A DNA stretch of 64,000 nucleotides, from NCBI GenBank assembly GCA_963828495.1, contig CAWHFJ010000017.1, positions 148,342 to 212,341 of the forward strand, read 5' to 3'. Below the pieces are notes generated by a model. It worked only from the letters and a program-made list of their open reading frames with translations, searched no databases and was not told the origin of the DNA. Shown here piece by piece: positions 8,796 to 60,518 of this stretch (position 1 is its first letter; the number at the start of each line of letters is the position of its first letter). Source of the DNA: Candidatus Omnitrophota bacterium. GTDB lineage: Bacteria > Omnitrophota > Gorgyraeia > Zapsychrales > Fredricksoniimonadaceae. Position numbers and translations under genes: made by a program.

Positions 8796-9272
8796 ATGGA
8801 ATATTCTTTTGCATCCTATCAAATAGCAGAAATGGCGAGTGAAATGGAGAAGGAAGGTGGTCATTTTTATCAGCAATTGGCTGATTTTTCGAAAGATGAA
8901 GCCGTCAAAGAATTGTTTTCATATTTAGCTAAAAGTGAAAAGAAGCATGAAAAAGACTTCCTGAGTATTGCCCAAGATACCAAGGCTTCGGAAGAAGTTT
9001 ATGCATATCACGTTAATATCGCCGGGATGATGAAATCTGGAATTAAAAGACTCAAGAGGGCAATGATCTATAATCAACAGATTGATATGCCACAAGCCTT
9101 AGAAATTGCCATCAATGGTGAAGAATTGGCCGTAGAGGTTTACAGCGAGATCCTCGGGGCTTATTCAGAACAGTTTAGTAAAGTTTTAGAGAAAATTATT
9201 GCTCAAGAAAAATCACATTTAAAAAGGATTAAAAATTTAAAACAAATACTCCAACCTGACCAAAGAAATTAG
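8796..9272 (+). CDS. ferritin-like / rubrerythrin-like diiron four-helix-bundle protein (paralogue 1)
   Basis: Two ExxH motifs (EKKH, EKSH) plus paired Glu residues. About 80-85% nt identity by eye to 46645-47139, including the shared RBS region caaagaaaggga.catccATG. 1-nt gap to the next gene. Confidence 0.55.
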   Translation: MEYSFASYQIAEMASEMEKEGGHFYQQLADFSKDEAVKELFSYLAKSEKKHEKDFLSIAQDTKASEEVYAYHVNIAGMMKSGIKRLKRAMIYNQQIDMPQALEIAINGEELAVEVYSEILGAYSEQFSKVLEKIIAQEKSHLKRIKNLKQILQPDQRN

Positions 9273-9273
9273 G

Positions 9274-10644: not shown

Positions 10645-10658
10645 GGAACTAAAAATAC

Positions 10659-11402
10659 ATGCTGATATTGTTCATTGCTTTTATTTGTGGCTATTTGGAT
10701 TCAGGTTTGGGCGGCGGCTATGGCACGGCACTGGCGCCTATCCTGATTTTGATGGGGTATAAACCCTTGGTTGTTATCCCGGTGGTATTAGCCTCGCAAT
10801 TTTTGACAGACATGGTGGCCTGTTGTGTTCATCATCAGGTTAAAAATGTGGATTTACATTTTAAATCCGATCATTTTAAAATAGCCGGGATTATAGGGCT
10901 TTTCAGTTTAATAGGGGTTGTCATTTCCGTTTTTGTGGCCATAGCGGTCCCGCAATGGATACTGACCTTGTATATAGGGGGCCTTGTCATTGCGATGGGC
11001 GTACTCATGCTTTTGACCGTCGATAAAGTATTCAAGTTTTCTTGGAAGAAGATTTTGGCGCTGGGGACTATAGCCTCATTTAACAAAGGCATATCAGGCG
11101 GCGGATTTGGCCCGTTGTTGACAGGCGGGCAAGTGTTGTCAGGGATCGACGCTAAGAATGTTATAGGTATGACGGCATTGGCAAAGGCCATGACATGTTT
11201 TGTCGGGTTTATGCTCTATTTTATCATGGGCAAGCCTATCAACTGGCATTTGATATTTATGCTTTGGCTGGGGGCGATTCCTGCAGTCATTGGAGCGGGC
11301 TTGACGGTAAAATATATCCCTACACATAAATTAAAAAAGACTATCGCTGTTTTTATTATAATCTTAGGTGTCCTGACACTTTTGAAGATCGGCGGGAAAT
11401 AG
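10659..11402 (+). CDS. TauE/SafE (TSUP) family anion permease
   Basis: 247 aa and polytopic. The two halves are internally duplicated, each with a Gly-rich loop (GLGGGYG; GISGGGFG), as in the sulfite-exporter TauE/SafE family. Confidence 0.75.
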   Translation: MLILFIAFICGYLDSGLGGGYGTALAPILILMGYKPLVVIPVVLASQFLTDMVACCVHHQVKNVDLHFKSDHFKIAGIIGLFSLIGVVISVFVAIAVPQWILTLYIGGLVIAMGVLMLLTVDKVFKFSWKKILALGTIASFNKGISGGGFGPLLTGGQVLSGIDAKNVIGMTALAKAMTCFVGFMLYFIMGKPINWHLIFMLWLGAIPAVIGAGLTVKYIPTHKLKKTIAVFIIILGVLTLLKIGGK

Positions 11403-11404
11403 GC

Positions 11405-12517
11405 ATGAGTTTTATTGACCTTGTTAAGCAGAATCTTCGTGAATTAGAAGAACCCCGGTTTAACGCATCATTATCCGGGGCGCATACCTATGTCCCGGAG
11501 AAGGTCTCACCCGGGTTTAATTTATTCGATGGGCGTTTGATAGACACCAACGGAGGGGTATTAAAAACCTGGAAAGCCTGTTACCTGGGCCGTATTTTGC
11601 CCCAGGGGCTGTATGTGGCGCAACGCCATTATGAGTCGATAATTTGGGGCTTGTATGATTGGCAGGACAAGGTTATTTGGGAAAAAGACATGCCGATCCA
11701 CCATGATATTTTTTTTACGGCGCGTGGCACGATCATCACGTTAACCAAAGACATGCACCTTTTTCATGGCAGGAAAGTGGATTTTTGTGTTGTGGTTGAG
11801 TTTGCTCTTGACGGTCATGAAATAATGAGATGGTCCACCTATGAGCATTTGTCCCAACTCAAACAATACCATCGTGCTCTTGAACTTGACCGGCCCAAGA
11901 TATTTTTCCTCCCGGAGCCTCCGGGCCGCAAATCAGCAACCCCGTGGGGAGGCAACTATGATTATTACCGCATGAATTCGTTCCAACTTCTCCCGGAAAC
12001 ATTGCTGGGAAGCAAGGATCCGCGGTTTCGCGCCGGCAACTGGTTGATCAGTTTCCGTCATGGCAGCATGGTCCTGATTTTAGACCAGGATACGCATAAG
12101 GTCGTCTGGACATGCATTGCCCAAGAGATTCCCGATGGCCTGCAGGGCCAGCATGCCCCAACCATGCTGGCGGACGGGAGGATCATTATTTTTGATAATG
12201 GCCGGTACCGAGGTTGGAGCCGTATCATTGAACTTGACCCGGTCACGAAAAAAGTGATGTGGCAATACCGCGCGGACGGGTTTTTTACATTGTCTCAGGG
12301 ATATGTGCAGAGGCTTGCTAACGGCAATACGCTGATAACCGAGAGCGAGCGGGGGCGTGTTTTTGAGATCACGCGTGAAGGCCGGGTGGTGTGGGAGTAT
12401 TACCATCCTGATGGGCAAAATGCGTCCAATTCCCAGCATCCGGAAAATTTTGGTCGTAGGCAATGGATTTACCGCATGGTCCGTTATGAACCCGCATTCA
12501 TAGAACCCTTTTTGTAA
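11405..12517 (+). CDS. arylsulfotransferase (ASST) family protein, no signal peptide
   Basis: Collinear with residues ~100-456 of the 9274 protein. Shared blocks: SLSGAH, VIWEK..PIHHD, GNWLISFRHGSMV.ILDQDT, IIFDNGRYR.WSRIIELDPVT, WEYYHPD. It lacks the hydrophobic N-terminus. Confidence 0.6.
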   Translation: MSFIDLVKQNLRELEEPRFNASLSGAHTYVPEKVSPGFNLFDGRLIDTNGGVLKTWKACYLGRILPQGLYVAQRHYESIIWGLYDWQDKVIWEKDMPIHHDIFFTARGTIITLTKDMHLFHGRKVDFCVVVEFALDGHEIMRWSTYEHLSQLKQYHRALELDRPKIFFLPEPPGRKSATPWGGNYDYYRMNSFQLLPETLLGSKDPRFRAGNWLISFRHGSMVLILDQDTHKVVWTCIAQEIPDGLQGQHAPTMLADGRIIIFDNGRYRGWSRIIELDPVTKKVMWQYRADGFFTLSQGYVQRLANGNTLITESERGRVFEITREGRVVWEYYHPDGQNASNSQHPENFGRRQWIYRMVRYEPAFIEPFL

Positions 12518-46644: not shown

Positions 46645-47139
46645 ATGGAATATTCTTTCGCATCCTATCAAATAGCAGAAATGGCGGGTGAAATGGAAAG
46701 GCAAGGTTGTACTTTTTATCAGCAATTGGCTAATTTTTCGACAAATGAAGCAGTCAAAGAGTTATTTTCTTACTTAGCTAAAAGTGAACAGAGGCATGAA
46801 AAAGACTTTCTCAATATTGCCCAAAATATGAAGTCTTCAGAAGAAGTTTATGAATACCCGGTTAATATCGCTGCGATGATGAAATCCGGAATCAATCAAT
46901 TGAAGAGAGCAAGGATCAATTCGGTCTCTACGGATCAACCAATTGACATGCCTCGAGCCTTAGAAATTGCCATCGATGCTGAAAAACTGGCCGTGCAAGT
47001 TTACAGCGAGATTGCCCAATCTTATTCAGAACGGTTTACTAAAGTTTTGGAAAAAATTATTGCTCAAGAAAACTCACATTTAAAAAGGCTCCAGAATTTA
47101 AAACAAACAATCCAACCTGACACAAAGGGAAAATTTTGA
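46645..47139 (+). CDS. ferritin-like / rubrerythrin-like diiron protein (paralogue 2)
   Basis: Collinear with 8796-9272 (MEYSFASYQIAEMA.EME...FYQQLA.FS..EAVKELFSYLAKSE..HEKDFL). 4-nt overlap with the next gene. Confidence 0.55.
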   Translation: MEYSFASYQIAEMAGEMERQGCTFYQQLANFSTNEAVKELFSYLAKSEQRHEKDFLNIAQNMKSSEEVYEYPVNIAAMMKSGINQLKRARINSVSTDQPIDMPRALEIAIDAEKLAVQVYSEIAQSYSERFTKVLEKIIAQENSHLKRLQNLKQTIQPDTKGKF

Positions 47140-48683
47140 TTACTTCTGATACAAAGCTTCTTCAGAAGATGTTCCTGGTAGGATTGCAGCTCGCCTTCCT
47201 TATAAACGCCTTCCCGGCCCATGCCGGCACTCTCATACTTAAACCTATGGGGCAGCCACGGGCTTTGCATGGCCCCATTTTCGGGGCTTCTACAACAGCG
47301 TTCTATGAACATCTGCTGGACGATCCAATCAAAATATCCGTGCTGAAAACGATGGCTATAGGGCTTGACCGTTTTTGCGGAGGGTCTGATGCCAATTTTT
47401 ATAATTGGCGTACAGGGCATATTGAAATTCAGGCATACCCTAATAGTTCTCCTTATGTACGCTTCTGGGTCAAAGCAGCCAGAAATATCAACCGCGGCAA
47501 GCCCGACGGTGTCATGATGGAGCAGTATGCATCTTTTTCCCAACAGATTGGGGCACAGGTGATTCTTGTGCCTAATCTGGAATCCTCAAGCGTCGATGAG
47601 CAGGTAGAATGGGTCAAGCGCTTAAGTTCTGAGGGTATTGTTCCGCAGCGGATCGAATTAGGCAATGAATTTTGGGTTGCAATGGGCAATGACCCCCAAA
47701 GCCTGGAGCGTTGGCCTGATGAGCCAACCAGCATGCGGATCATGAAGCAATATGTGGATGCGTTTAGGCCCTATTTACCGAAAAATGCCAAGGTCGCTGT
47801 GCAAGCCGCTGCAGGCGCCCTTGATGCAAGAAGGGGCAGGTTTGGCCAACGGCTTCGGCAGTGGGACGAAGATTTGCATCCTGAGCCATGGTTTGATGCT
47901 GTTACAGTACATCTTTATCCCCGTTTACGCGATGTCATGGGTGACCGGGATGCGGGCTCGACACCCCCGACAGCGGAAAATGCAATGGTCCGCCTGGGGG
48001 CCATGATGGCCCGTGTGGATGAAGGCGTAGACAAAATCCTTCAAGATATCGAAAGTCGCGTCCCGGGCAAGGAGATTTGGGTCACAGAATGGAATTCGCG
48101 CGGGTCCAATCCAACGGCCCAACGCAGTGAAACGGATGCCGAGCCCCTGTCTCCGGTAATGGAGATGCTGACCGCAAGTCGCATGGCGCTTGTTTATCTT
48201 CGGCATCCTTCAGTGACCGCTTCGCTCTTTTTCATGTATAGCTTTAGGCCAAGAGATCCCCACAAAATGTTTGTTCCGGATGGCCAGGGGAGTTATGCCC
48301 CGGTGCCTGCGGCTGCCGCGCTGCGCTGGTTAAGCCAGGCCGCCAATAGCGGTAGTTCTTTCCAGCGCTTGGTCCAAGCAGACGAAATGCCGGTTGCCGG
48401 CGGGGGAACAAACAACGAATCCTATCTTCCGGTAGAAGGTGGGCTCTTTGAATCGCCCGAAAGCAAGACCCTTCTCTTAGAGAACGCTTCTGCCGCAAGT
48501 TTTTCTTTTGATCCTACGACGTTGGTGGGAGGGCGCGCCCCAAGCCGGGTTGAAACTCTTGTGACAGATGATTTGCTTGACCTTGAAGTGTCCGCTGCCC
48601 GGATTCAAACTCAAGACGTTAGCGCACCCATTAAAATCCCGCCATTTTCCCTAACCCGGATCGTTTGGGAACTGTCATCCTGA
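47136..48683 (+). CDS. exported clan GH-A-like (beta/alpha)8 glycoside-hydrolase-like protein
   Basis: Signal-like N-terminus (..LINAFPAHAG). Candidate acid/base site IELGNEFW and nucleophile site EIWVTEWN, about 140 residues apart as in GH-A enzymes. The GH family is not assignable by eye. GC is visibly higher than in the neighbouring genes. Confidence 0.4.
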   Translation: MITSDTKLLQKMFLVGLQLAFLINAFPAHAGTLILKPMGQPRALHGPIFGASTTAFYEHLLDDPIKISVLKTMAIGLDRFCGGSDANFYNWRTGHIEIQAYPNSSPYVRFWVKAARNINRGKPDGVMMEQYASFSQQIGAQVILVPNLESSSVDEQVEWVKRLSSEGIVPQRIELGNEFWVAMGNDPQSLERWPDEPTSMRIMKQYVDAFRPYLPKNAKVAVQAAAGALDARRGRFGQRLRQWDEDLHPEPWFDAVTVHLYPRLRDVMGDRDAGSTPPTAENAMVRLGAMMARVDEGVDKILQDIESRVPGKEIWVTEWNSRGSNPTAQRSETDAEPLSPVMEMLTASRMALVYLRHPSVTASLFFMYSFRPRDPHKMFVPDGQGSYAPVPAAAALRWLSQAANSGSSFQRLVQADEMPVAGGGTNNESYLPVEGGLFESPESKTLLLENASAASFSFDPTTLVGGRAPSRVETLVTDDLLDLEVSAARIQTQDVSAPIKIPPFSLTRIVWELSS

Positions 48684-48693
48684 TCCTATATTA

Positions 48694-48727
48694 CTGTCAT
48701 TCTGAGCGCAGCGAAGAATCCTTAGGC
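48694..48727. repeat. REP-like element, variant 2 (ctgtcattctgagcgcagcgaagaatc.ttaagg)
   Basis: Near-identical copy at 53845-53877. Confidence 0.7.
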
Positions 48728-48729
48728 AC

Positions 48730-48748
48730 ATATCACAATTTGTGATAT
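48730..48748. promoter_or_regulatory. perfect palindrome ATATCACA-att-TGTGATAT, candidate operator
   Basis: 8-bp arms with a 3-nt spacer. A further TTGTGATA half-site at 48833-48840 lies 33 nt before the 48873 ATG. Confidence 0.3.
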
Positions 48749-48790
48749 CCTAATAACAATCCTTCCCCCAAGGATTTTACATAAATTCCC
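48748..48790 (+). repeat. ~40-bp intergenic direct repeat, copy 1 (tcctaataacaatccttcccccaaggattttacataaatt)
   Basis: Matches 52362-52404 (ttcctaataacaaatccttccctcaaggaacttatataaatt). Contains a short hairpin tcctt-ccc.c-aagga. Confidence 0.65.
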
Positions 48791-48872
48791 CCAGTAAGCG
48801 TATTAATAATATTATCTTGCCAATACCCATATTTGTGATACATTTGTATATACAAGTGGGTGAAAGAGGATT

Positions 48873-49133
48873 ATGGATAAGGCCCGCTGGAATCCATTAA
48901 AGAATCTGTATTTAAAACAAACAAGGGGAATAACTTTTGATGAAATTATCCATGCAAAGCTGCTCGGTATCACAGAACATCCAACACATACGCACCAAAG
49001 TATTCTCATTTATGAGCACAAACAATATGTGTGGGCTGTTCCATGCGTAATCAATGAGAAAGGTACGTTCTTAAAAACTATATATAAAAGCCGTAAATTA
49101 ATGAAGAAATATACCAAGGAGGAACATCAATGA
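48873..49133 (+). CDS. BrnT-like (DUF497-like) toxin candidate
   Basis: 86 aa. WNPLKNLYLKQTRGITFDEI resembles the W/F-D-x-x-K-x-x-x-N-x-x-K-H-G-V-S-F-x-E start of BrnT toxins. 4-nt overlap with a downstream RHH-type partner. Confidence 0.45.
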   Translation: MDKARWNPLKNLYLKQTRGITFDEIIHAKLLGITEHPTHTHQSILIYEHKQYVWAVPCVINEKGTFLKTIYKSRKLMKKYTKEEHQ

Positions 49134-49402
49134 AAAAGATAAAACTGACCAAATATGAACAATATATCGAAGATCATATAGATGAATACGTTCCGGTATC
49201 AAAAGAAAAATTCAATACTATTGTTAAATCCATTGAAGCCAGAAAGAAGGATGCTGTTTTAAATATCCGCATCAACCAAGGGGACCTAAACAACCTCAAA
49301 GATAAGGCTAAGCACTTAGGGGTCAAATATCAAACATTTATAGCTGAAATCTTACATAACTTTGCTCAGGATGAGAGTGTAAGTTTAAAAGGTAGGCACT
49401 AA
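49130..49402 (+). CDS. BrnA/CopG-like antitoxin candidate
   Basis: 90 aa. The C-terminal block LNIRINQGDLNNLKDKAKHLGVKYQTFIAEILH is typical of BrnA-type ribbon-helix-helix antitoxins. Confidence 0.5.
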   Translation: MKKIKLTKYEQYIEDHIDEYVPVSKEKFNTIVKSIEARKKDAVLNIRINQGDLNNLKDKAKHLGVKYQTFIAEILHNFAQDESVSLKGRH

Positions 49403-49405
49403 AAT

Positions 49406-49432
49406 AAAAATAGGGGACAGCGCCCTATTTTT
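49406..49432. terminator. bidirectional rho-independent terminator between convergent genes
   Basis: aaaaataggg-gacagcg-ccctattttt. 10-bp stem with A/T runs on both sides, sitting between the brnA-like stop (49402) and the symporter stop (49451). Confidence 0.6.
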
Positions 49433-49450
49433 ATCTTATTTGCGCATTTT

Positions 49451-50674
49451 TTAGCACTTTGCCATCTTCTGCACAACACAGGCACCGATACAATCACCTT
49501 CGACATTAACGACCGTACGAATGGTATCTAAAGGCCGGTCAATGGCAATGAGAATGGCCACGGCTTGCGCGGGCAGTCCAACGGCTTGTAACACCATGAT
49601 CATGGTCACCATGCCGGCACTGGGTATTCCGGGTGCCCCTATGGATGCCATCATGGCTGTCAGGACCACGATAGCCTGTGATAGCAGGGTCAGGTGAGCC
49701 CCGCATAAATTAGCCACGAATAGGGCAGCCATGGCCTCGTACATGGCAGTTCCATCCATATTCAGAATGGCCCCAACCGGCAGCACAAAACGGGCGATAT
49801 GTTTATCCACCTTTAGGTTCTCTGTGATACAGCGCAGGCTTACAGGCAGGGTGGCGGTCGAAGAACTGGTCGAAAATGCCGTGATAAACGCTTCTTTCAT
49901 GGCCAAAAAGAATCTAAGGGGGAAACCCTTGTGATCAGCCATAAAATAATTGGCAGTGTGATCAGTCCGTGAAAAAGTGTGGTCCCGACAACCACGATAA
50001 TATATTTACTTAAAACGTACAGCAATTGCACATTTTGTTGGGCGATGAGTTTGGTTAAAAGTCCCATGATGCCAAGAGGCGCCAGGCGCATGATCCAACG
50101 CACGATGGTCATGGTGATTTCAAACAGTTCATTGATCACTTTTAAGATAGTTTGGCCTTTTCACCTAAAACAACGATGGCAATCCCTAAAAATACGGCAA
50201 ATAGCACAACGGTAATAATATAGTTTTGGCTCATGGCAGCCAATGGGTTCATGAATACAGTATGGTGATGACGTGAAAGGCATTCATGCTTTCTTTGAAT
50301 AAATGGATATCAAGCCCAACACCGGGTTTGATAAAATTCATGGCTGTCAGGCCGGTCATGGCGGCCAAAGCCGTGGTGGTTAAAGAATAGAATATCAGGG
50401 TAGGCCATATGCGCCTTAATTGAGGGGAGTTTTTCAAATTGGCAATACCGGCACCAATAGAAGTAAAAACAAGGGGGATCATGATCATTTTAAGCAAATT
50501 GATAAAAATTTTGCCTAAAATATCAAAACCAAAAAGAAAATGTGAGCAAGTCTGGGCAGGCAAAGCCGTATGGCCAAAAATAATGCCAAAAATCACCCCC
50601 AGAATGGCTCCTAAGAAAATTTGTGTGTTCAGTGATATTTTTACTTGTGATTTAACCATAGAAATATGATACAC
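49451..50674 (-). pseudogene. dicarboxylate/amino-acid:cation symporter (DAACS/SDF family), three frameshifts
   Basis: N-terminal (50249-50674), middle (49897-50139 plus MNPLAAMSQNYIITVVLFAVFLGIAIVVLGEKAK in a third frame) and C-terminal (49451-49942; ..AFSTSSS..LPVGA..NMDGTA..IDRPLDTIRTVVNVEGD) fragments are collinear with the family. Shifts at ~50250, ~50150 and ~49925, the last in a C5 run. Confidence 0.8.
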
Positions 50675-50682
50675 TAATTTTT

Positions 50683-51942
50683 ATGTTTATGACGCCCTAT
50701 AATTATTATTTACCGGTAGTTTTGCTTATCCTTATCGGCGGATACATCGTCAACTTCATCATCGAGCAGTTGGATATCGCCTATGCGCCGCCGGTCTTGC
50801 CTCGTGAATTGGAGGGATATTACGACGCTGAAAAATACCAAAAGTCGCAAAGTTACCTCAAAAAGAAGGTCCGCTTCAGCCTTATCGAAAACGCCTTCTT
50901 TACTTGCGGTGTCATTATTTTTATTCTGGCCGGCTGGTTTAATCTGATAGACGGCTGCGCGCGTTCTCTTCATCAGCCGCCGCTCGTTACAGGGCTTATT
51001 TTTCTCGGGATACTTTATCTGACCTATTATATCTTTTCGATCCCGTTTTCCGCTTACCAAACATTCGTTATAGAAGAAAAGTATGGTTTCAACAGGACCA
51101 CGCCGAAAACATTCGTTGTCGATATTTTTAAAAATATGATATTAACAATACTCCTTGGCGGGATAATAGTAGCGCTTATTTTGTGGTTTTTTAACATTTT
51201 AGGCAGATGGGCCTGGGTTTATTCATGGATAGCCGTGACGGTTTATCAGTTATTTCTTGTATTTATAGCGCCTGTGACTATCCTGCCGCTCTTTAATAAA
51301 TTTACGCCCCTGGAAGAAGGCCAGTTAAAAGCCGCCATCACCGATTACGCATGTGCGCAGGATTTTAAGATAAAGGGCATATACAAGATGGATGCTTCGC
51401 GCCGCAGCGCCAAATCGAACGCTTTTTTTACAGGACTCGGAGCTTACAAGCGGATCGTGCTCTTCGATACCCTGGTCACTAATATGAAGACGGATGAACT
51501 GGTGGCGGTCCTTGCCCATGAGATAGGGCACTATAAGCACAAAGATATCTTTAAGAGCCTCGCCGTATCAACCGCAAGCATAGGACTTATGTTTTTCGGG
51601 CTGTCGTTTTTTATCTATAACAAAGATTTTTTTGCGGCATTTAAGATGGCCAACATCTCTGTTTATGCAGGACTCTTCTTATTTACATTCCTCTACCAGC
51701 CGGTCAATGATCTGTTCTCGGTCGGGACCAATTATATCTCGCGGCGTTTTGAAATTCTGGCCGATAGGTTCTCGGTCGATACCTATAAACATCCGCAAGC
51801 CATGATTAATGCGCTTAAGCGTCTGAGTGTCGATAACCTGTCAAATCTTACCCCTCATCCCTTGAAAGTATTCTTATCTTACAGTCATCCGCCTGTGCTT
51901 ACGAGGATAGAGGCGATAAGGAAAGTCGAAAAGGCCAAATAG
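50683..51942 (+). CDS. M48 family (Ste24/HtpX-like) membrane zinc metalloprotease
   Basis: Polytopic N-terminal half. HEIGHYKH zinc motif. C-terminal ...SHPPVLTRIEAI, as in Ste24-type CAAX proteases. Confidence 0.85.
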   Translation: MFMTPYNYYLPVVLLILIGGYIVNFIIEQLDIAYAPPVLPRELEGYYDAEKYQKSQSYLKKKVRFSLIENAFFTCGVIIFILAGWFNLIDGCARSLHQPPLVTGLIFLGILYLTYYIFSIPFSAYQTFVIEEKYGFNRTTPKTFVVDIFKNMILTILLGGIIVALILWFFNILGRWAWVYSWIAVTVYQLFLVFIAPVTILPLFNKFTPLEEGQLKAAITDYACAQDFKIKGIYKMDASRRSAKSNAFFTGLGAYKRIVLFDTLVTNMKTDELVAVLAHEIGHYKHKDIFKSLAVSTASIGLMFFGLSFFIYNKDFFAAFKMANISVYAGLFLFTFLYQPVNDLFSVGTNYISRRFEILADRFSVDTYKHPQAMINALKRLSVDNLSNLTPHPLKVFLSYSHPPVLTRIEAIRKVEKAK

Positions 51943-51953
51943 GAGGAGTTAAA

Positions 51954-52361
51954 TTGAAAAAGATTAAGAATTTTTTAGTTTTATTATTGTGCTTGGGGTT
52001 ATGCGGCTGTGCGTCTACTGAATATGCACTCATTTATAAAAATGCTTTAAAAACCGGAACTGGTTTTACCGTTACAAAAGAAAAAAATTATCAAAAATTA
52101 AAAGAAAGAGTGGCTGAATACTTTGTGTCTCGGGGTTATAAAAGTATTGTATTTGCAGATCAGAAAAACGGATTCTTTGTTTTTGCCAAAGAAGGGGATT
52201 TCCAAGTGCCTTGCAAAATCATCTTAAAATATACTGAAAAAGCAGGGGCAGATAAGATTCGTATTGATATAGTGAAGGGCGACGATGAAGACGAATTAGT
52301 AACCGATAGTGAGGTCTCTGCCGATATCCAGGCAATCGGCGATCAAATAAAGAAAAATTAA
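51954..52361 (+). CDS. probable lipoprotein, unknown function
   Basis: TTG start after a ggagg RBS. MKKIKNFLVLLLCLGLCGC is lipobox-like. Confidence 0.45.
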   Translation: MKKIKNFLVLLLCLGLCGCASTEYALIYKNALKTGTGFTVTKEKNYQKLKERVAEYFVSRGYKSIVFADQKNGFFVFAKEGDFQVPCKIILKYTEKAGADKIRIDIVKGDDEDELVTDSEVSADIQAIGDQIKKN

Positions 52362-52404
52362 TTCCTAATAACAAATCCTTCCCTCAAGGAACTTATATAA
52401 ATTA
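52362..52404 (+). repeat. ~40-bp intergenic direct repeat, copy 2
   Basis: See 48748-48790. Confidence 0.65.
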
Positions 52405-52503
52405 TTTGACTTTATAACGTAAAAGCGCAAAATAAGTAAAGAAGCATATCGACCGTATCATCCATGCCGCTTCTATTTAATAATCTCTTTAAAGGAGGCG
52501 GCC

Positions 52504-53346
52504 ATGAATCCACAAAGTATGTCCCATCAAGGTGCATTAACCAAAATAGCTGTTTTCAAAGGTAAACAAATCAGAAAGGTCATTCATAATAACGAATGGT
52601 GGTTTTCTGTTGTTGATGTATGTGGTGTATTAACTGATAGTGTAGATGCGAACGCATACTGGAGAAAACTTAAACAACGATTAGTTGAAGAAGGAAGTGA
52701 AGTCGTGACAAATTGTCACGGGTTGAAATTACCTGCCCCCGATGGAAAAATGCGGGAAACCGATTGCGCCAATACAGAAAACATCTTCCGTATCATCCAA
52801 TCAATACCTTCTCCAAAAGCCGAACCATTCAAACGCTGGCTGGCCAAGGTAGGCTTTGAACGTGTCCAAGAGATAGAAAACCCTGAATTAGCCGCCCAAC
52901 GCATGCGCACTATCTATAAGCTTAAAGGCTATAGCGCTGACTGGATCGAAAAGCGCATGCGCGGCATTGTTATTCGTGAAGAGTTAACAGACGAATGGAA
53001 AAACAGAGGCGCCCAAGAAGACAAAGACTATGAAGCGCTGACCGCCGAAATATCTAAAGCCACCTTTGGCGTCACCCCAAGCGAATATAAGAAATTAAAA
53101 GGCCTAAAACGTGAAAATCTTCGCGACCATATGAACGATTTTGAGCTCATTTTTACCATGTTAGGTGAACGCTCCACCACTGAGATCCACCGCAACGAAG
53201 ACTCCCAAGGTGTTAAAAAGCTTAAAGATGATGCACAAGCCGGGGGAGACATAGCCGGTGGCGCCCGCAAGCAGCTGGAGAAGAAGCTTGGCCGCTCAAT
53301 CGTTTCAAACAAGAACTACTTACCTAAATCCCAGAAAATAAGGTGA
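52504..53346 (+). CDS. Bro-N domain / DinD-like (DNA-damage-inducible protein D-like) protein
   Basis: N-terminal FKGKQIRKV..NEWWFSVVDVCGVL (Bro-N-like). The C-terminal part (PSPKAEPFKRWLAKVGFERVQEIENPELA...RGIVIREELTDEW) resembles the DinD / phage anti-repressor family. Confidence 0.6.
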   Translation: MNPQSMSHQGALTKIAVFKGKQIRKVIHNNEWWFSVVDVCGVLTDSVDANAYWRKLKQRLVEEGSEVVTNCHGLKLPAPDGKMRETDCANTENIFRIIQSIPSPKAEPFKRWLAKVGFERVQEIENPELAAQRMRTIYKLKGYSADWIEKRMRGIVIREELTDEWKNRGAQEDKDYEALTAEISKATFGVTPSEYKKLKGLKRENLRDHMNDFELIFTMLGERSTTEIHRNEDSQGVKKLKDDAQAGGDIAGGARKQLEKKLGRSIVSNKNYLPKSQKIR

Positions 53347-53384
53347 TTAAAATGAATTTCAAACAATTCGGAAAGGCAATGTCC

Positions 53385-53409
53385 CCTATGTAGTTAACAA
53401 CTACATAGG
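53385..53409 (+). promoter_or_regulatory. perfect 11-bp-stem hairpin overlapping the RBS of the next ORF
   Basis: cctatgtagtt-aac-aactacatagg. The 3-prime arm runs into aggagg (53407-53412), with the ATG at 53417. Confidence 0.5.
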
Positions 53410-53416
53410 AGGACAT

Positions 53417-53680
53417 ATGAGCAGATCAAGGAAGCATACACCAATCTGGGGGTTCGCACACAGCGAGAAAGATGACAAAAGGATTTTGCACGGTAAGCTT
53501 AGAACAAAATCGAGAATCGCCGTTAGGAAAATGCTGTTAGAACATTCTTCGGAAGAGTATATTGCGCCTAAATATGATGAGGTCCACAATAAGTGGGTTA
53601 TGGCGAAGGATGGCAAGATGTATTGGATTCCAAAGAAGGACGAATACTGGTTTTGTTTTGAAAAAATGATGAGAAAATAA
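53417..53680 (+). CDS. small hypothetical protein
   Basis: 87-aa ORF with a strong RBS. No recognisable motif. Confidence 0.35.
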   Translation: MSRSRKHTPIWGFAHSEKDDKRILHGKLRTKSRIAVRKMLLEHSSEEYIAPKYDEVHNKWVMAKDGKMYWIPKKDEYWFCFEKMMRK

Positions 53681-53737
53681 TTCTTCAATGTCCCAAATTG
53701 GCACCTTGAACACAACGTCAACAAAACGATCATTCAG

Positions 53738-53877
53738 TGTCATTGCGAGCCATTTTCTTATGTCATTGCGAGCGTAGCGAAGCAATCTCTTTCCAATTAT
53801 TCCTCCCCCTTGATGGGGGAGGTTAGGTGGGGGTGAGAGTCCCACTGTCATTCTGAGCGCAGCGAAGAATCTTAAGG
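53738..53877. repeat. cluster of short dispersed repeat elements
   Basis: Four pieces: gtgtcattgcgagc (53738-53750), tgtcattgcgagcgtagcgaagcaatctct (53761-53790), cctcccccttgatgggggaggttaggtgggggtgag (53802-53836; related to 54562-54595), and ctgtcattctgagcgcagcgaagaatcttaagg (53845-53877). Confidence 0.7.
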
Positions 53878-53912
53878 TATATTTTAGAATTTTATGATAT
53901 AAATATACCAAT

Positions 53913-53996
53913 CGGTTTCCCCCAAACCGCGTATTGTTAAATCAATCTCGCACTTCCCCCTGTGCAGTAGCACCAACTAAACAAGGGGGAACCATG
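53913..53996 (+). promoter_or_regulatory. conserved structured 5-prime leader, copy 1 (upstream of the ORF6N gene)
   Basis: cggtttcccccaaaccg hairpin (53913-53929). ttccccct (53954-53961) is complementary to the RBS agggggaa (53984-53991). ATG at 53994. Confidence 0.5.
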
Positions 53997-54560
53997 CCTA
54001 CAAAACAATTAATCAAAAAATCAGAAATAGCTGTTCCAGTTGAGATCATTCAAAACAAGATTTATCTAATTCGTGGCCATAAAGTCATGTTCGATAGAGA
54101 TTTAGCAGAATTATATGACGTCATGACAAAAAATTTAAATAAAGCCGTGCAACGTAATATTGAACGATTTCCAGATGACTTTATGTTTCAGTTAACTAAG
54201 CAGGAAGCTGAAAGTTCAAGGTTCCAAATTGGAACCTTGAAACAAGGGCAGAATATCAAATACTTACCTTACGTTTTTACCGAACAAGGCGTTGCGATGC
54301 TTTCCAGCGTTCTTAAATCCAAAAGAGCTGTTCAGGTTAATATCCAAATAATGAGAGTTTTTACAAAACTACGTGAAATGATGATCTCTCACAAAGACCT
54401 GGCCCGTAAAATCGATGACTTGGAGATAAAATTCCAAACTCATGACCAAAAGATCATCCAAATTTTCGATACTATAAGGCGTATGACGACAATCCCAGAA
54501 CAAACGGGGCCAGAACCATATAAAAGACATAGAGTTGGGTTTATAGCAGATAAACCTTAA
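53994..54560 (+). CDS. ORF6N (KilA-N-related) domain protein
   Basis: IQNKIYLIRGHKVMFDRDLAELYDV.TKNLNKAVQRNIERFPDDFMFQLT...YLPYVFTEQGVAMLSSVL is the canonical ORF6N pattern. The ATG at 53994 follows the leader RBS. Confidence 0.7.
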   Translation: MPTKQLIKKSEIAVPVEIIQNKIYLIRGHKVMFDRDLAELYDVMTKNLNKAVQRNIERFPDDFMFQLTKQEAESSRFQIGTLKQGQNIKYLPYVFTEQGVAMLSSVLKSKRAVQVNIQIMRVFTKLREMMISHKDLARKIDDLEIKFQTHDQKIIQIFDTIRRMTTIPEQTGPEPYKRHRVGFIADKP

Positions 54561-54716
54561 TGTGTCATCCGGGGGAAGTCAGGTGGGTAGGGGAGAAATA
54601 AGTTAAGTGTTTTCTTCTACCAGCCCTTTCAGATGAATTCAACGGTGGTTTTTCTCTGGTGCGGCGGGGGTTTCGCTTCGCAATGGCTTTTAAAATTTCT
54701 ACTATTAAATAACCTG

Positions 54717-54811
54717 CGGTTTCCCCCAAACCGTTTAATATATAAAATATCGCAACTATCCCCCTAGACGCGATAAGTTTACCTCACCAATTTCAAAGGG
54801 GGAAAATCATG
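54717..54811 (+). promoter_or_regulatory. conserved structured 5-prime leader, copy 2 (upstream of tcmP)
   Basis: Identical cggtttcccccaaaccg hairpin (54717-54733). tccccct (54759-54765) is complementary to the RBS aggggga (54797-54803). ATG at 54809. Confidence 0.5.
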
Positions 54812-55513
54812 TCACAAAATCCAGTCTCAAATATCGATGGATTACCTGTCCGTCCAAGTGGTATTTGGATCAAAAGAAAGCATTATTATTTAACAGAATA
54901 CGCTAAGATTTTTACGATTGGTATGGGCAAGAAATGGAAAGGGCTAACCTTTCTTGATCTTTTTGCCGGCCCAGGCCTTTGCATCATTGAACAAACACAA
55001 GAGGTGCTCGGATCTCCGCTGTTAGCTTTGCAGTATGACTTTAGTCATTATATCTTTGTTGAAGAAACGGCCAATTTAATGAATGCCTTGCAAGCAAGAT
55101 GCGCCAATTCCCCCAAAGCGGCGTTAATCAAATTTATTCAAGAGGATTGCAATAGTGGCATTGACCATATCATTAAACAGATGCCATTGAATCATCTCAA
55201 CCTTGCCTTTATTGATCCAACAGATATTGATATTAACTTTGATACGATCAAGGCTTTGTCCAAGGTTGCCAATGGCGTCGATCTATTGATCAACATTCAA
55301 TAAGGAAAGGATGCGAAAGACGTTATAGAAATTTATAAATCACGTATCCGTGAACTTGGATATGGAACGGTTGAGCATCGGGATATAACAGTCACTAATA
55401 CAAAGAATGCCCCAATGTATTTCTTATTATTTGCTTCCAAGGATCCCAGAGGTCTTGACTACTGGAAGAAAATATCAAAGAAAGATGAACAAGGACAAGG
55501 GGAATTGTTTTAA
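54809..55513 (+). pseudogene. tcmP: three-Cys-motif partner protein TcmP, with an in-frame TAA at 55301
   Basis: RPSGIWIKRKHYYLTEY..., FLDLFAGPG. After the TAA the same frame continues for 70 codons to a family-like C-terminus (...PMYFLLFASKDPRGLDYWKKI...GQGELF). About 60 residues of the usual middle region appear to be missing. Confidence 0.65.
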
Positions 55514-55522
55514 AATAAGCGT

Positions 55523-55696
55523 ATGGCTATTAATTAATCCATAGAATGGACCGAATCAACGTGGAACCCGGTAACGGGATGCACAAAGACGAGCCGGGGA
55601 TGTCTGCATTGTTACGCTCAGCGGATGGCGCAGCGGTTGGCTCCGGGACGAGAGGGTTTTCATCCCAAAACGAAGCGGATTTTCCAGCGCTCTTGA
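55523..55696 (+). pseudogene. 5-prime fragment of a DUF5131 (phage Gp37/Gp68-like, three-Cys) gene
   Basis: [44 protein letters not shown]... carries the IEWT..TWNPV.GC...S.GC..CYA three-Cys signature. In-frame TAA at 55535. Family similarity is lost after ~55640, and the AT-rich to GC-rich switch falls at ~55546. Confidence 0.55.
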
Positions 55697-56467
55697 GCGC
55701 GTTGGTCTTCGCCCCTTCTTGCAAGTAGGCGCGGCTCAGGCGCCAAAACCCTTCGCGTCTGGCGCGATTGAAAACCTCGTTCAGGCAGACGCGGGCCTCC
55801 TGTGGTTGATGAATTTTCAGTAACGCACGTGCAAGTTCGTTTGGTGGAACCGTCGGTGCAGAGCCAGCGTCTTTTCCCGCTGGCTGGCGCTGAGGGCTAA
55901 GGCGCGAAAACTCAAGCGCAGCGTCCGGGTCATCGCGAGCCAGCTCGATGGCTCCCAGCAGCGTCTCGGCCCGACCTTCCCAGCCGCGACATTCGGCCAG
56001 GCGGTGCCCGGTCTCGGCGGCTTTCGCAAACTCTTCACGGTTGAAATACGCGCGAGTCAATTCGAACAGTGTCTCGGCGTGGTTCGGCTGGGCGGAGCGG
56101 GCTTGCTCCCAGACTTCGATTCCGCGAGGGTTCCCGCTGCGCGTCAAGGCAATCCCTAGCAGACAAAGGTCATCCGGGGTGATCGCGGCCGCCCCGAGCC
56201 GGCCATATAAGCGCGAGGGCCGACGATTATTTCCCAGGCGAACTGATGCATTTGCGAGCAGCCGAAGTGCGGCCACGTCGTTGCCACCGCTTTCAAACGC
56301 TGCCTTGCGCGTTCGGCTGCGACTTGCCATTGCCCGCGAGCGTATGCAGCCGAGCCTTCCCTGACCGGATCAAACGAAACGGCTCTTCGCGCGAGCAGCA
56401 GCACCGCGAGGATGCTTGCCGCGATGAGAATTCGCAGCCATCGGCTCCGCGAACGGTAACGCGACAT
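55530..56467 (-). pseudogene. membrane-anchored TPR-like protein (GC-rich block), frameshifted
   Basis: MSRYRSRSRWLRILIAASILAVLLLA (start at 56467) joins the 55530-56330 ORF (..AALRLLANASVRLG.., ..AETLFELTRAYFNREEFAKAAE..) only through a frameshift near 56290-56330. The 3-prime limit is uncertain, because the ORF runs antisense through the DUF5131 fragment. Confidence 0.4.
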
Positions 56468-56554
56468 CGTGTGGTCTTGTTCCACCGGCGAGCTGCACGA
56501 AGGCTCCAGAGCGGGGTCGGACATATGCGATTCTCGCCAGGACTCCTCGCACAG

Positions 56555-57756
56555 TCAATCGGGGATCGTGGGCGGTCCGGCGCAGCGTCGAGCTTGGAAA
56601 TCGTGTTTTTCAGTCCTGCGTCGGTTGGCGCGAGACGGAACGCCAGTCGAAACCAGGCACGGGCCTGGTCTCGGCGCCGAGAGCCTCGCAGGCTTCAGCG
56701 ATGACTCGCAACGTTGCGAGATCGTGCCGACGGTTGGTGCGCACGCGGTCTGGACGAGCCATTCAACGCGGTCGTGGGCGCGGGCAGCCTCGGCGTGCGG
56801 GCGCGGCCTCGACCTGGCCCGTGAGCCGCAGTGCCTGACTGAGCCCGAAGTGTGCGTCACGGTCGTCCGGGGCGGCCTCGAGCCGCAGCGCGAAAGTGAT
56901 TGACGGCGGCGGCGGCATCGCCCCGGCCGAGCGCCAGCCGCCCGCGAAGCTCCGCTCGCGCCGCGTGGCTGTCATCTCCTGCATCGGAACCGAGGAGCGC
57001 CTCCGCGGCCGCGGTGTCGCCGCGGTCGAGCGCGATCCGCGCCGGGAGACGCGAGCGTCGCGCTCGTCGGACAAGCGCGGCGAGTGTTGCGTCGGCCTGG
57101 TCCAGCCGGCCCAGCCGCCGCAGGGATTCGGCGAGCGCGAGCCGCGACAGACGGTCGTCGGGATCCTCCGCGAGCACCCGTACCAGGGCGTCGGCCAGGT
57201 CTGCCAGATCGATGGCGCGTGCCGGTCGAGCGTCCAGACCACCAGATCCAGAAACTCGAAATTCGAGCCCGAGACCAGCGCCCGCGATTCTGCGGCCAGC
57301 AGATCCGACCGGCCCTGCTGCGGCGTACAACCAGATGAGGCGGCGACGGGCATCGATCGACTTCGGATTCAGGACCAGGCCGCGCTTCAGCTCGGCCTCC
57401 GCGGCACGAAAATGATGGCGCTCCATCTCCAGCTCCCCTCGACGCGCGGCGATCGCGGCCGCCTCAGGACCGCGTGTCGGCACATTGGCGCCATCGAGCG
57501 CGGCAGCGCCTCGGCGATCTTGCCGCGATTGCTCGCGGCTTGCGAGCGAAGCAGTCGCTCGGAAACCGTCAGCCGCCTGATTCGGGCCAGCCGCGGCCAG
57601 CGCCGCCTCGGCCTCGGCCGGCCGGCCGGCGGCAGCCTCGGCCTGTGCGCGATACGCCAGGTCCTGAGGATCGTCCCGCACGCATGCCGAGCATGCCGCG
57701 GCGAAAAGGCCAAGGGCCGAGAATCCCGACAGAAGAGGTCGTTCGCTGGGCCTCAT
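56555..57756 (-). pseudogene. exported TPR-repeat protein (GC-rich block), several frameshifts
   Basis: MRPSERPLLSGFSALGLFAAACSAC (ATG at 57756), then Ala/Arg-rich TPR-like helices. The reading frame has to switch at ~56860 and ~56760 to follow the helical repeats. Confidence 0.35.
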
Positions 57757-59065
57757 GGCTTTTTCCCGGTCTCGACGACTTGGGCGTGCGCTCAGCGCCG
57801 GGTGTTCGAGCGTGGTGATCTCGCCCGAGGGCCAACGCACCAGCACGCGCTCTACGGACTCGGCTGTTCCCACCCCCACGAGGATTCTCGGATCGTGCGA
57901 AGACATGAGGCTGTGCCCGCTTTTCGAGAGGCGGTGGATCACTCGTCCACCGGCGTGCACCTCGACTTGCGCTCCAATCCCATCGCGTGAGCTTCGAGTC
58001 CCACGGCATGCCAGGCGGATCCAGTGATTCCGGGTTTGCGTGTCGTTGCGGAGGATGGAGGGGGGGCCGTCCTTGTGGCTGAACACCAGGTCAAGATCCC
58101 CGTCGTCGTCCAGGTCACCGAGGGCCAGGCCGTGTCCCAGGTGCCGGCTCTCGAAGTACGTGCCCGCACCCCGATTCGCCAGCCGGAACCGCCGGCCGGC
58201 GAGATTAAGGTGCAACAGCGGCGGCTGCCGATCGCTTACCGGCTGGCCGCGGAATTCGACGTTGTCGTCGACGTCGGCGTTGGCCACGACGCAATCGGGC
58301 CAACCGTCGTTGTCGAGATCCGCGAGAGCGCAACCCCAGCCGATCCAGGGAAGACTGTCAACCGCCAGGCCGAAGTTGGCTGTCGCGTCGAGGAACGTGT
58401 CCCTTCCGAGGTTGCGGTAGAGGGTGTTGTAATCGTTCGCAAAGTGGGTGACGAATAACTCCGGCAGACCATCGCCGTCAACATCCTCGGCATCGACGCC
58501 CATGCCGGCCTGGGTCCGGCCGGCGACGTCGTAGCCTGCGCCGCTCTCTTCGGAGACGTCTCGAAAGGTGCCGTCGCCGTTGTTCAGATAAAGGAAATGC
58601 GGGTCCCGGTCGTTCGCGACGTAGAGGTCCGTCTTGCCGTCGCCGTTCAAATCCGCTGCGACGACTGCGAACCCGTGACCGTCGGAGCGACCCATGCCTG
58701 CCTTGTCAGTCACGTCGGTGAAAGTCCGGTCGCCGTTGTTCAGGTAGAAGGCATGCTTGACCGGCCTGAGCGCTGCGGGCGGGCAGTAGCGACGGATCTT
58801 TCGCTTGGTATCGCCACAGAACTGGTCGTCGCGAGGATAGCTCCAATCACCGTAGCGGGTCACGTACAGATCAAGGTCGCCGTCGCCGTCATGGTCAATG
58901 AACGCCGCGCTGCTCGACCATGTTCCGGCCTGGAAGATCCCGGCGGCGCGTCGCCACCTCGGTGAAAGAGCCTTTGCCGTTATTCACGTAAAGGGCATCG
59001 CCGCCAAAGTTGCTCAGGAAGACATCGGCGTCGCCGTCGTTGTCGATATCACCGACCGTGATGCC
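57757..59065 (-). pseudogene. CRTAC1-like FG-GAP/VCBS-repeat plus ASPIC/UnbV-domain protein, 5-prime truncated and frameshifted
   Basis: Repeated D.DGDG.LDL / NNGDGTF blocks (VGDIDNDGDADV, DLNGDGKTDLYVAN, DVDGDGLPELFV, DLDNDGWPD, DLDDDGDLDLVF). ASPIC-like end (NHWIRL...RDGIGAQVEV...RVLVRWPSGE). Frameshift at ~58880. No stop separates it from the next gene. Confidence 0.65.
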
Positions 59066-59294
59066 ATGCACGATCAACGCCCGCAGGATATTCTCCGACG
59101 TGAAGTCCCCCTTGCGCCTTCGCGACCGCCTTGGGAGAGTTTCTGCAGATCGCGGTCGACCAAATCCAGGATCTGGGGATTTTGTCCAGCACTTGACTAA
59201 TCGAGCGGTATCGGGCACGATAGTCACGGATGACCTTCGGCAACCCCTGATCATTGGACTCAAAACTCAACACGGCTTCCTTCTTCCGACGCAT
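59066..59294 (-). mobile_element. N-terminal fragment of a transposase (ISNCY / ISKra4-like N-terminus), two frameshifts, abruptly joined to the FG-GAP gene
   Basis: MRRKKEAVLSFES...RDYRARYRSISQVLDK / NPQILDLVDRDLQKLSQGG / DFTSENILRALIVH, read across three frames. This resembles the conserved N-termini of that transposase group. Nothing resembling a catalytic domain follows. Confidence 0.4.
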
Positions 59295-59350
59295 CCTTGT
59301 TCTCCTTGTGGTACTTGTGAACGAATAACCACTAGGATAAGGATGCGTCG
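59287..59350 (-). promoter_or_regulatory. 12-bp inverted repeat sequestering the RBS and ATG of the transposase fragment
   Basis: cgacgcatcctt (59287-59298) and aaggatgcgtcg (59339-59350). On the minus strand the downstream arm contains aagg-ATG-cgtcg, which is the start codon. Confidence 0.45.
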
Positions 59351-59379
59351 TTTTTTGTCAATTTCTTGTTTTCCAAAAA

Positions 59380-60437
59380 TCAGCCTCCAACCTTTCCGCA
59401 ACAGAAACTCATTAGCACGACCAGTTCAGAATCATCCCACCGGTGGAGTACCACGGATTCGCCAGTAGACGAGTCCGTTGCAGCCTTGATGAACTTTGCC
59501 TCCACCTTTGTCGCTGACTCATTCTCTGAGATACTCCAGGTGCGCCAGCGGGTCTTGTCCGAATCTTTTACATAGGCCCGGTCTGGCTCAGATAGGTCAT
59601 CTAAGTTGACTTTCAGCTTCCCTCCATCGCGAGTAACGATCGTAACAACAGCGTTGATTTTGCCACCATACCTCGCCTCGACTTCCTTATCCGCAAAGGT
59701 CCAGGTTCGCCACTTCGCAGCTTCAACTAGTGCCGCAGACTCCTTTTCAGCATTAACGCGCTCGGCGGCAGCCTGTTGCTCTGCCTCTACCTTGGTCTTT
59801 AGTTTTTTGTCGATCTCTCTTAGCTTGGCGTTGTTGCATTCAAGAACCAGAACGGTCTTTCGGCCACCAGAAACAGCCTCATAACTATAGGTTCCCGAAA
59901 TCTCGACGGGGTGTAGGAGAAGAAACTCGGTCCCGTCCGTCACCTTGGTCATGCCTAGGCCGCGCAGGAGCATGACTTCTGAGCGAACACTTCTCTTGAA
60001 ATGATAGTATCCATCAGCGCTCTGCTTGAGGGGGGTCGAGTTTTTCGTCGTATTCAATCGTCACCAAGCATTCGTTATCGCGGACCTTGTTGACTGCCTG
60101 GAAGCGACGGGGCCATCGCACCCAGCCCCAATCGCCGATCTGGAAATCAGGGGGTGCTTTGTTGGCAATGGAACCCCCCAAATCCTGTTCCTGTGGGCTA
60201 CCCCACCACACGTTTTGCCGAATAGATTACGGCCGGCGTCCATGTCCTTTTGACGCCTAGCTTCGTCCCGGCCGCTCTCTTTTGGGTTTCTTGTGGTCGG
60301 ACAAAGCCTCGCCGATAATCCTGCCCCGCCTGTTTTCCCTGTGGGGAGTTTGGGTCTATCGTGGTGCGGGCCAATGCCGAAGTTGATTTGCCACTGACCG
60401 TTAAGACCACTGCAAGTAAAATCGCACACCGGTTCAT
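59380..60437 (-). pseudogene. exported SHD1-domain (SLA1-homology-1-like) repeat protein, frameshifted
   Basis: Signal peptide MNRCAILLAVVLTVSG (ATG at 60437). SHD1-like blocks: KWRTWTFADKEVEARYGGKINAVVTIVTRDGGKLKVNLDDLSEPDRAYV and RWRTWSISENESATKVEAKF. The ORFs 60198-60473, 60014-60211 and 59380-60057 join only via frameshifts. Confidence 0.45.
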
Positions 60438-60518
60438 GACAACCTCCCATGTGTAAGAAATGTCACCCAACAAAAACGGAGCGTCGATCGCCTAAAAATC
60501 GCCGCGTCTCCGGGCGAG

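Follow-up and report, generated by a model that had tools for sequence, protein, structure and literature searches.

The DNA considered here, a window of 64,000 nucleotides (64 kb) from contig CAWHFJ010000017.1 of the GenBank assembly GCA_963828495.1, carries near its right end the beginning of a gene of the DUF5131 (Gp37/Gp68) family, and within this gene, between positions 55,639 and 55,640, AT-rich DNA of one organism gives way to GC-rich, Planctomycete-type DNA of another. We consider it likely, with a probability of about 0.8, that a chimeric long read or a misjoin, and not biology, extended the contig across this point, and that the junction should be flagged as an artefact. The breakpoint is exact, an intact native allele of the gene exists elsewhere, the GC-rich DNA opens with a 3.43 kb fragment that has two non-native ends and carries private changes at the error level of raw reads, and the native continuation is absent from the contig; a chimeric read or misjoin would be the cause. 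A first-pass annotation of the window had suggested a chimeric join at this place, and this is still the best reading of what is seen, namely that DNA of two unrelated organisms meets inside the DUF5131 gene.

Native counterparts of the left side were reached by a search with the fragment of the neighbouring gene for TcmP, a three-Cys-motif partner protein, which led to a 99%-identical protein of the same shortened length, and through the neighbouring DUF5131 cluster; seven loci from six other samples were obtained in this way (L002/L003, L084, L085, L086, L087 and L088). In blastn comparisons, all seven match the window up to exactly 55,639, the five close loci at 99.1–99.9% identity and L084 and L085 at 89.5%, and all seven go on past this position with an intact DUF5131 gene of 248 codons. 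Locus L086 extends 10.6 kb further, through genes of 32–48% GC for methyltransferases, a TetR protein, a CLC channel and a P-type ATPase. On the other side, Planctomycete homology starts at 55,638 (blastn) in both right-side reference contigs, L090 and L001, the latter being a contig of 996 kb and 65% GC that was found via the 70%-identical homolog (P0001) of the TPR open reading frame (ORF) adjoining the junction. A base-level three-way comparison shows the window tracking the native sequence through ...GCGCAGCGGTTG and, after the join, the reverse strand of the TPR gene from ...TGGCTCCGGGACG. Codon 39 of DUF5131 thus abuts, in antisense, approximately codon 281 of the TPR gene, both genes being cut within their reading frames, and the sequence common to the two parents is limited to two nucleotides (Table 1). 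By our own calculation, at least two shared nucleotides are expected by chance at about 16% of random joins.

These findings bear on the mechanism put forward in the first-pass annotation, in which an assembler jumped between two DUF5131 genes via a k-mer in the conserved peptide IEWT..TWNPV.GC, or homologous or microhomology-mediated recombination took place there. The GC rise does start at this peptide, and the codon usage of the DUF5131 stub lies between those of the two sides; however, the whole stub up to 55,639 is 99.6–99.8% identical to the four close native AT-rich loci, and its right-hand partner is an opposite-strand TPR gene and not another DUF5131 gene. As the parents share only TG, there is no conserved k-mer for an assembler jump and no meaningful microhomology, and the probability of this route is close to zero. 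Graph-based chimeric contigs usually form at a shared repeat or k-mer, and the sharing of only two nucleotides here therefore favours a chimeric molecule or read over a jump in the graph. Neither a tRNA nor a tmRNA gene was detected in the 64 kb, an Rfam scan at the junction gave no match, no repeat pair brackets the junction, and no integrase was found at the join. Remnants of ONT, PacBio or Illumina adapters were likewise absent from this join and from the second one described below; 'in silico' read chimeras of the back-to-back type with a retained adapter are thereby excluded, and ligation chimeras are compatible with this result.

The composition of the window changes at nearly the same place. 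A single-change-point model over the 64 kb gives 45.4% GC to the left and 61.4% GC to the right of about 55.56 kb, with the change-point at 55,559 (local 2-log-likelihood support, 55,543–55,592) and a log-likelihood gain over no change of about 376 units, which confirms a composition step far beyond chance in the deposited sequence. To the right of the step the GC content is 60–70%, save at 59–61 kb, where it is 52–55%. The model places the step within the first DUF5131 codons, where an abrupt switch from AT-rich to GC-rich DNA had already been described; the gene content, which had been supposed to switch where the GC rises (at about 55,546), instead changes together with ancestry 94 nt later, at 55,639/55,640. 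In L086, the native DUF5131 gene has GC fractions of 0.50, 0.58 and 0.55 per 100-nt window, then 0.36–0.5 in the rest of the gene and about 0.3 beyond it, the values after the bump lying at 0.26–0.5 overall. The rise between 55,546 and 55,639 is the AT-rich organism's own bump at the conserved Cys-rich N-terminus of DUF5131. The GC step stands 94 nt to the left of the break because this native bump runs straight into foreign GC-rich DNA and the two read as one step, a case which shows that a GC change-point can sit away from the true breakpoint through the local composition of a gene. Tetranucleotide profiles, whose comparison along with GC had been proposed earlier, also differ across the junction: the left segments correlate with native L086 at r = 0.69–0.77 and the tail correlates with L001 at 0.62–0.79, versus cross values of 0.18–0.49.

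The DUF5131 stub, including its GC-rich part at 55,546–55,639, is native to the AT-rich organism. An origin from the GC-rich organism was considered as well; the codon-usage log-likelihood was ambiguous, with the stub ranking at the 5th percentile among the genes of the left side and at the 98th among those of L001, and the nucleotide identity to the native loci ruled against it. The match to PF07505 in the window stops far short of the roughly 243 positions of the full model, native alleles being full length. Two substitutions private to the window (Table 1) fall in the last 104 nt before the join, where they amount to 1.9%; at these positions, 55,536 and 55,619, the four close strains and both outgroups all carry C and G, respectively. 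No differences from L086 occur over 53,500–55,535, and the two substitutions are the sole differences up to 55,639. The in-frame stop at codon 5 is one of these two private changes and not an old lesion. Since 1.9% is also the error level of the tail, the stretch of poor support seems to start some 100 nt ahead of the join.

The TcmP gene upstream is, judging from its alignment to the full-length homologs P0026, P0033 and P0034, a family member by descent and a pseudogene, in which TAA replaces a conserved Tyr codon at 55,301–55,303 and is followed by a deletion of about 34 codons. This 164-aa ORF recurs among the gene calls of L002, L003, L086, L087 and L088, and the lesion is common to all the native strains found; it is therefore unrelated to the join. 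Compared with known TcmP–DUF5131 (Gp37/Gp68) modules, the left-hand pair shows the usual adjacency and the N-terminal Cys-rich motif of DUF5131, whereas TcmP is a pseudogene in the whole lineage, DUF5131 is only a 39-codon stub in the window, and the function of the module is irrelevant to the junction. TcmP is decayed in every strain found while DUF5131 is intact in all native copies, and the partner pair thus seems half decayed across the lineage.

The GC-rich DNA next to the join matches L090 at 96.5% and L001 at 85.9% identity, in both cases over exactly 55,638–59,068 (blastn). Both references continue natively past both ends of this stretch; the window therefore holds a discrete 3.43 kb fragment (block F2) and a second mid-gene join. 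L001 carries the same gene order, with genes for a CRTAC1-like protein, two TPR proteins of 402 and 320 residues (TPR-402 and TPR-320), a multiheme cytochrome, an ECF sigma factor of the PF07638 type and a kinase. The right side had been called Planctomycetota-like in the first-pass annotation, and the closest contigs agree with this in carrying PSCyt2, PSD1, DUF1501 and PF07638 ECF sigma domains. PSCyt2, PSD1 and DUF1501, all three present in the closer relative L090, are domains typical of Planctomycetota. In Pfam searches, most of the gene content named earlier was recovered (TPR, FG-GAP_3 with UnbV_ASPIC, and GYF_2), save SHD1, which remained sub-threshold (17 bits versus 23.7).

All three genes of block F2 are damaged. 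The alignment of TPR-320 ends at residue 281 of 320 of P0001, with 'DENPLVPEP' exact; close to 56,290 the gene has a single net frameshift (tblastn frames −1 and −3). The single-frame identity of TPR-402 to its L001 ortholog is 56%, nonsensical stretches reading perfectly in another frame, and tblastn gives 82% once the frame is restored; its frame-breaking indels are private to the window. The CRTAC1-like fragment retains both of its domains and is 92% identical to the 593-aa protein of L001 (tblastn), its N-terminal 154 codons being missing and its frame broken. After frame restoration, amino-acid identity to L001 and dN/dS are 92% and 0.12 for the CRTAC1-like gene, 82% and 0.25 for TPR-402, and 75% and 0.32 for TPR-320, and no nonsense substitution was found in about 1,100 codons of these genes. 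As a separate observation, L001 (6927–11865) and L090 (about 7000–11569), which are about 85% identical, share the order CRTAC1-like protein, TPR lipoprotein, TPR membrane protein and multiheme cytochrome; this conserved order suggests a possible functional operon linking the FG-GAP/ASPIC protein to extracytoplasmic cytochromes.

Changes over the 3.43 kb were assigned to lineages by a three-way alignment of the window, L090 and L001. The window has 18 private indels of a length not divisible by three (14 deletions and 4 insertions), one 6-nt deletion and 59 private substitutions; L090 has 15 such indels and 36 private substitutions, and L001 has two such indels, together with 419 substitutions, which are the sites where the window and L090 agree against it. 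Block F2 therefore carries about 2.3% window-private differences, mostly 1-nt deletions, and 5.2 private frame-breaking indels per kb. These differences are sequencing error at roughly the level of a single raw read and not decay, because dN/dS of 0.12–0.32 indicates purifying selection, nonsense changes are lacking and the indels are private; evolutionary pseudogene decay was ruled out on the same grounds, nearly all the indels being private to one assembly. On the left side, the window is collinear with L086 over 46,933–55,639, with the same gene order, and the two differ by 5 indels in 8.7 kb (at most 0.6 per kb), several of them at homopolymers. The few indels and an intact ORF of 10,368 nt on the left, against the error-rich sequence on the right, thus point to very different read support for the two sides. 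Reference-free frame tests (longest stop-free stretch and GC3 frame switches) gave no discrimination, long stretches without a stop occurring by chance in GC-rich DNA. Indels that break the frame, are private to one lineage and fall on genes under purifying selection provide a usable read-free sign of a poorly supported contig segment.

The second non-native join lies at 59,068/59,069, where a transposase fragment is fused mid-gene directly before residue 155 of the CRTAC1-like protein; in L001 and L090, the CRTAC1 gene continues at this place with its own N-terminus. The two fragments are in one frame and give a spurious chimeric ORF of 122 aa (58895–59263), which gene callers may report. The rest of the GC-rich tail (F3) is Planctomycete-like in composition, with tetranucleotide correlations of 0.62–0.69 with L001 and 0.20–0.49 with the left side. 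Relatives of F3 with genomic context were not found in two JGI metagenome scans, and one viral scan gave only an irrelevant match. A site-specific genomic island would share with the present case the sharp step in GC and codon usage, as well as the ISNCY fragment and the excisionase-type HTH protein in the GC-rich part. Unlike such islands, however, the boundary here has no integrase, tRNA target or direct repeat, both sides are cut within ORFs, the acquired genes are fragmentary, there is no second boundary at which host DNA returns, and the contig lacks the native genes from downstream. The recombination-related remnants in the GC-rich part are limited to the 61-residue ISNCY fragment and the excisionase-type HTH protein, 3.4–7.5 kb from the junction.

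An exhaustive protein search recovered one of the tail's own ORFs, and in a protein cluster look-up the proteins of both sides and a 266-aa ORF spanning the junction were all found on one 232,791-bp contig held by both NCBI and ENA, and the spanning ORF is on record on this contig only. A join made by concatenating separate records was ruled out by this result. A related explanation is that two or three separate contigs were put end to end without a gap, by scaffolding, gap-closing, circularisation or the depositor, the end of the stub being an unpolished contig tip. The clean join without overlap, the clustering of errors at the would-be tip and the quality contrast between the two sides, which would fit contigs of different depth, are in keeping with such an abutment. 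Nevertheless, N spacers are lacking, a piece of 3.43 kb at raw-read quality is unlikely to have been a stand-alone contig scaffolded between two others, and the whole junction lies inside a single deposited record; this explanation is highly improbable.

The AT-rich genome does not resume after the junction. There is no return to AT-rich DNA by position 64,000, and none of ten native downstream genes of L086 has a member of at least 90% identity on the 232,791-bp contig, whereas the upstream genes do. In the native loci, natural strain variation starts at short repeats 152 nt after the DUF5131 stop, which offers a plausible reason for the assembly to break near here, and we infer that the contig broke because the region just downstream varies between strains. 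A 4.1 kb methyltransferase segment of L086 is missing in L002 and L088. The TcmP–DUF5131 pair is flanked by a repeat of about 69 nt (window 54602–54670, L002 2000–2066 and L088 1905–1965), and the DNA downstream differs by strain, being the 4.1 kb with Dam-like and N6/N4 methyltransferases in L086 (10900–14998) and an Mrr-like gene in L002. Together with the Bro-N and ORF6N genes upstream, this has the look of a region of defence or mobile genes that varies between strains and recombines at short repeats.

According to the reading that we prefer, the contig of an AT-rich and probably Omnitrophota-like bacterium would have been well supported as far as about 55.5 kb, where the assembler would have lengthened it by what was essentially a single chimeric long read, or by an equivalent misjoin. 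Such a read would have contained, in series, the last 100 nt or so of the native DUF5131 5′ end, the Planctomycete fragment of 3.43 kb and one or more additional GC-rich pieces. Chimeric contigs have been documented for all metagenome assemblers and, for most of the approaches tested, became more frequent as coverage fell (PMC11261854). Like these, the contig shows an abrupt change of composition, of tetranucleotide signature and of taxonomic affinity at a single position, and genes to either side of it are cut short; the join is confined to this contig, and uninterrupted parents are present in other assemblies. The Planctomycete relatives L001 and L090 sit in sibling assemblies of the ENA accession series of L086 and L002, and these neighbouring accession numbers suggest that the two partner organisms co-occurred. 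The similarity to concatemer long reads from ligation libraries is also close, as unrelated fragments of a few kb lie head to tail with clean, homology-free junctions and about 2% deletion-biased error; on the other hand, an adapter remnant is lacking here, and the source sequencing platform is our own deduction.

Several points weigh against this explanation. The join is clean and without an adapter remnant. Ordinarily, native reads would have polished the final 100 nt of the stub, and this reading does not account for their failure to do so. The low read support of the tail is deduced from consensus quality only, and the GC-rich DNA may be either a 'tail' or one partner in a join of two large pieces. 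Finally, L002 (ENA ERZ25039466 contig_44483, 4.9 kb, from a sibling assembly) passes from the same AT-rich locus to DNA of about 65% GC approximately 1.5 kb past the breakpoint of the window, and it is the one observation that keeps a biological reading alive. The switch in L002, at around 2,620, follows the Mrr-like gene, and the GC-rich part of the stretch concerned (2600–4910) has a frameshifted SDR gene and an FG-GAP-like ORF. Neither blastn nor tblastx detected similarity of this GC-rich tail to the tail of the window, L001 or L090, and one large GC-rich island plus a deletion, as a common explanation of the window and L002, was ruled out on this basis. The L002 switch is probably a second chimeric artefact at the same trouble spot.

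The principal biological alternative is that illegitimate recombination truly took place, in a single strain or in an uncommon variant: end joining would have repaired a double-strand break inside DUF5131, within the strain-variable region of defence genes, and would have captured Planctomycete fragments, truncating both genes. End-joining capture at double-strand breaks is known for microhomology of 0–4 nt, arbitrary mid-gene breaks and possible clustered mutations nearby; the 2-nt microhomology and the clean mid-gene join fit it, and the two private substitutions, at most 104 nt from the break, could reflect break-associated mutagenesis. The locus lies in a variable region that includes short repeats and genes for Bro-N, ORF6N, TcmP/DUF5131 and methyltransferase or Mrr-like proteins; GC-rich DNA also follows it in L002, which comes from another assembly, and a rare true variant would likewise yield a low-coverage, error-rich tail. 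However, the junction-spanning ORF is confined to one contig while the intact allele is present in six other samples, and at least two independent mid-gene joins within 3.4 kb would be required. Moreover, 2.3% private differences, mainly 1-nt deletions on genes under purifying selection, are unlike a stable, well-covered genome, the native downstream genes are missing from the contig, and the L002 tail is unrelated to the tail of the window, L001 and L090, so that there is no common island. End joining alone explains neither the ten-fold jump in indel error nor two joins 3.4 kb apart, and we regard a real capture as unlikely. A more specific version, in which the junctions are real, an Omnitrophota-like bacterium took up raw Planctomycete fragments by end joining inside this variable defence-gene region, and L002 records a second, independent capture at the same hotspot, is very unlikely.

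Table 1. Features of the 64-kb window (positions in window coordinates).
Feature	Position	Strand	Evidence or remark
ABC substrate-binding protein, histidine kinase, TonB receptor, arylsulfotransferases	left 55 kb		
CysNC, porin, M48 protease	left 55 kb		
Two-partner-secretion system and giant GLUG-repeat proteins	left side		one intact ORF of 3,455 aa (10,368 nt)
TcmP (three-Cys-motif partner protein), apparent pseudogene	54809..55513	+	TIGR04474, E=1.3e-31, 110.5 bits versus cut-off 53
DUF5131 (Gp37/Gp68 family) 5′ stub, codons 1–39 of a 248-codon gene	55523..55639	+	PF07505 positions 2–39 of 243, E=7e-16
Two window-private substitutions	55,536 and 55,619	+	C>A (TCA to TAA, 'stop' at codon 5) and G>C (Glu to Gln); multi-locus alignment
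Join	55638..55640		TG the only dinucleotide common to both parents; no inserted bases
Block F2, discrete 3.43 kb Planctomycete fragment	55638..59068	−	non-native join at each end
TPR gene (TPR-320), ortholog of the 320-aa P0001 of L001 without its last 39 codons	55635..56467	−	BLASTP 70% identity
Second TPR lipoprotein gene (TPR-402), ortholog of the 402-aa protein of L001	56560..57756	−	11 indels not divisible by three
CRTAC1-like FG-GAP/UnbV_ASPIC fragment, residues 155–580 of 593	57793..59071	−	Pfam FG-GAP_3 and UnbV_ASPIC
ISNCY-family transposase N-terminal fragment, about 61 of 444 residues	59069..59294	−	internal frameshift; NF033593 positions 5–61, E=0.008 (weak)
F3, rest of the GC-rich tail	59295..64000	−	weak SHD1-like, coiled-coil, GYF_2 and excisionase-type HTH proteins (Pfam, NCBIfam)

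The left 55 kb have the gene content of an ordinary Gram-negative chromosome (Table 1). Its M48 protease is 75% identical to a protein of a Candidatus Omnitrophota metagenome-assembled genome (MAG), the next best matches being at most 60% identical, and on the strength of this one marker the organism may tentatively be called Omnitrophota-like; the nearest Omnitrophota MAG shows no synteny with the left side beyond the M48 gene. A taxonomic assignment of each side, as envisaged in the first-pass annotation, thus finds the best relatives in an Omnitrophota MAG on the left and in Planctomycete-type contigs on the right. A same-strand cluster of GLUG-repeat genes (12625–41606; products of 3,455, 1,084, 1,775 and 1,145 aa, among others) ends with a two-partner-secretion transporter of the ShlB/FhaC type, and for 29 kb or so this is an exceptionally heavy commitment to giant proteins that are secreted or on the surface.

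Some smaller irregularities were observed in this part of the window. At 42136–43018, between the genes for APS kinase and CysN, lies a CysD-like gene that is spread over three frames (two or more frameshifts), unlike its neighbours; it is a pseudogene or else a further patch of local error. A gene for an SDF-family transporter at 49451–50659 is broken by three indels (−1, −1 and +2) and has 18 substitutions inside 500 nt, the L086 copy (402 aa) being intact; this is a local low-quality patch or a recombined tract in the otherwise clean left side. L086 contains at 2100–3503 a 1.4 kb element of the IS3 family (HTH_Tnp_1 and rve), absent at the matching site of the window near 49030, which is an insertion polymorphism between strains of about 99% identity. 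Between an 87-aa ORF and the ORF6N gene, the segment 53537–53911 translates to motifs such as 'LRMT...RYARNDI', of a kind seen in other uncultured bacteria where spurious ORFs lie on short dispersed repeats, and a 17-nt piece occurs at both 53913–53929 and 54717–54733.

The biological importance of the junction is most likely none, and its value is practical. In the deposited 232.8 kb contig, which is assumed to belong to a MAG, no less than 8.4 kb of Planctomycete DNA is joined to an AT-rich genome unrelated to it, and the contig can seed false calls of horizontal transfer, false taxonomic signals and spurious fusion proteins, the 266-aa spanning ORF being already in a public protein collection. 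Omnitrophota are suspected to include host-dependent or predatory nanobacteria. If the junctions were real after all, they would be rare direct evidence of DNA capture between phyla and a genomic trace of physical interaction between the two lineages.

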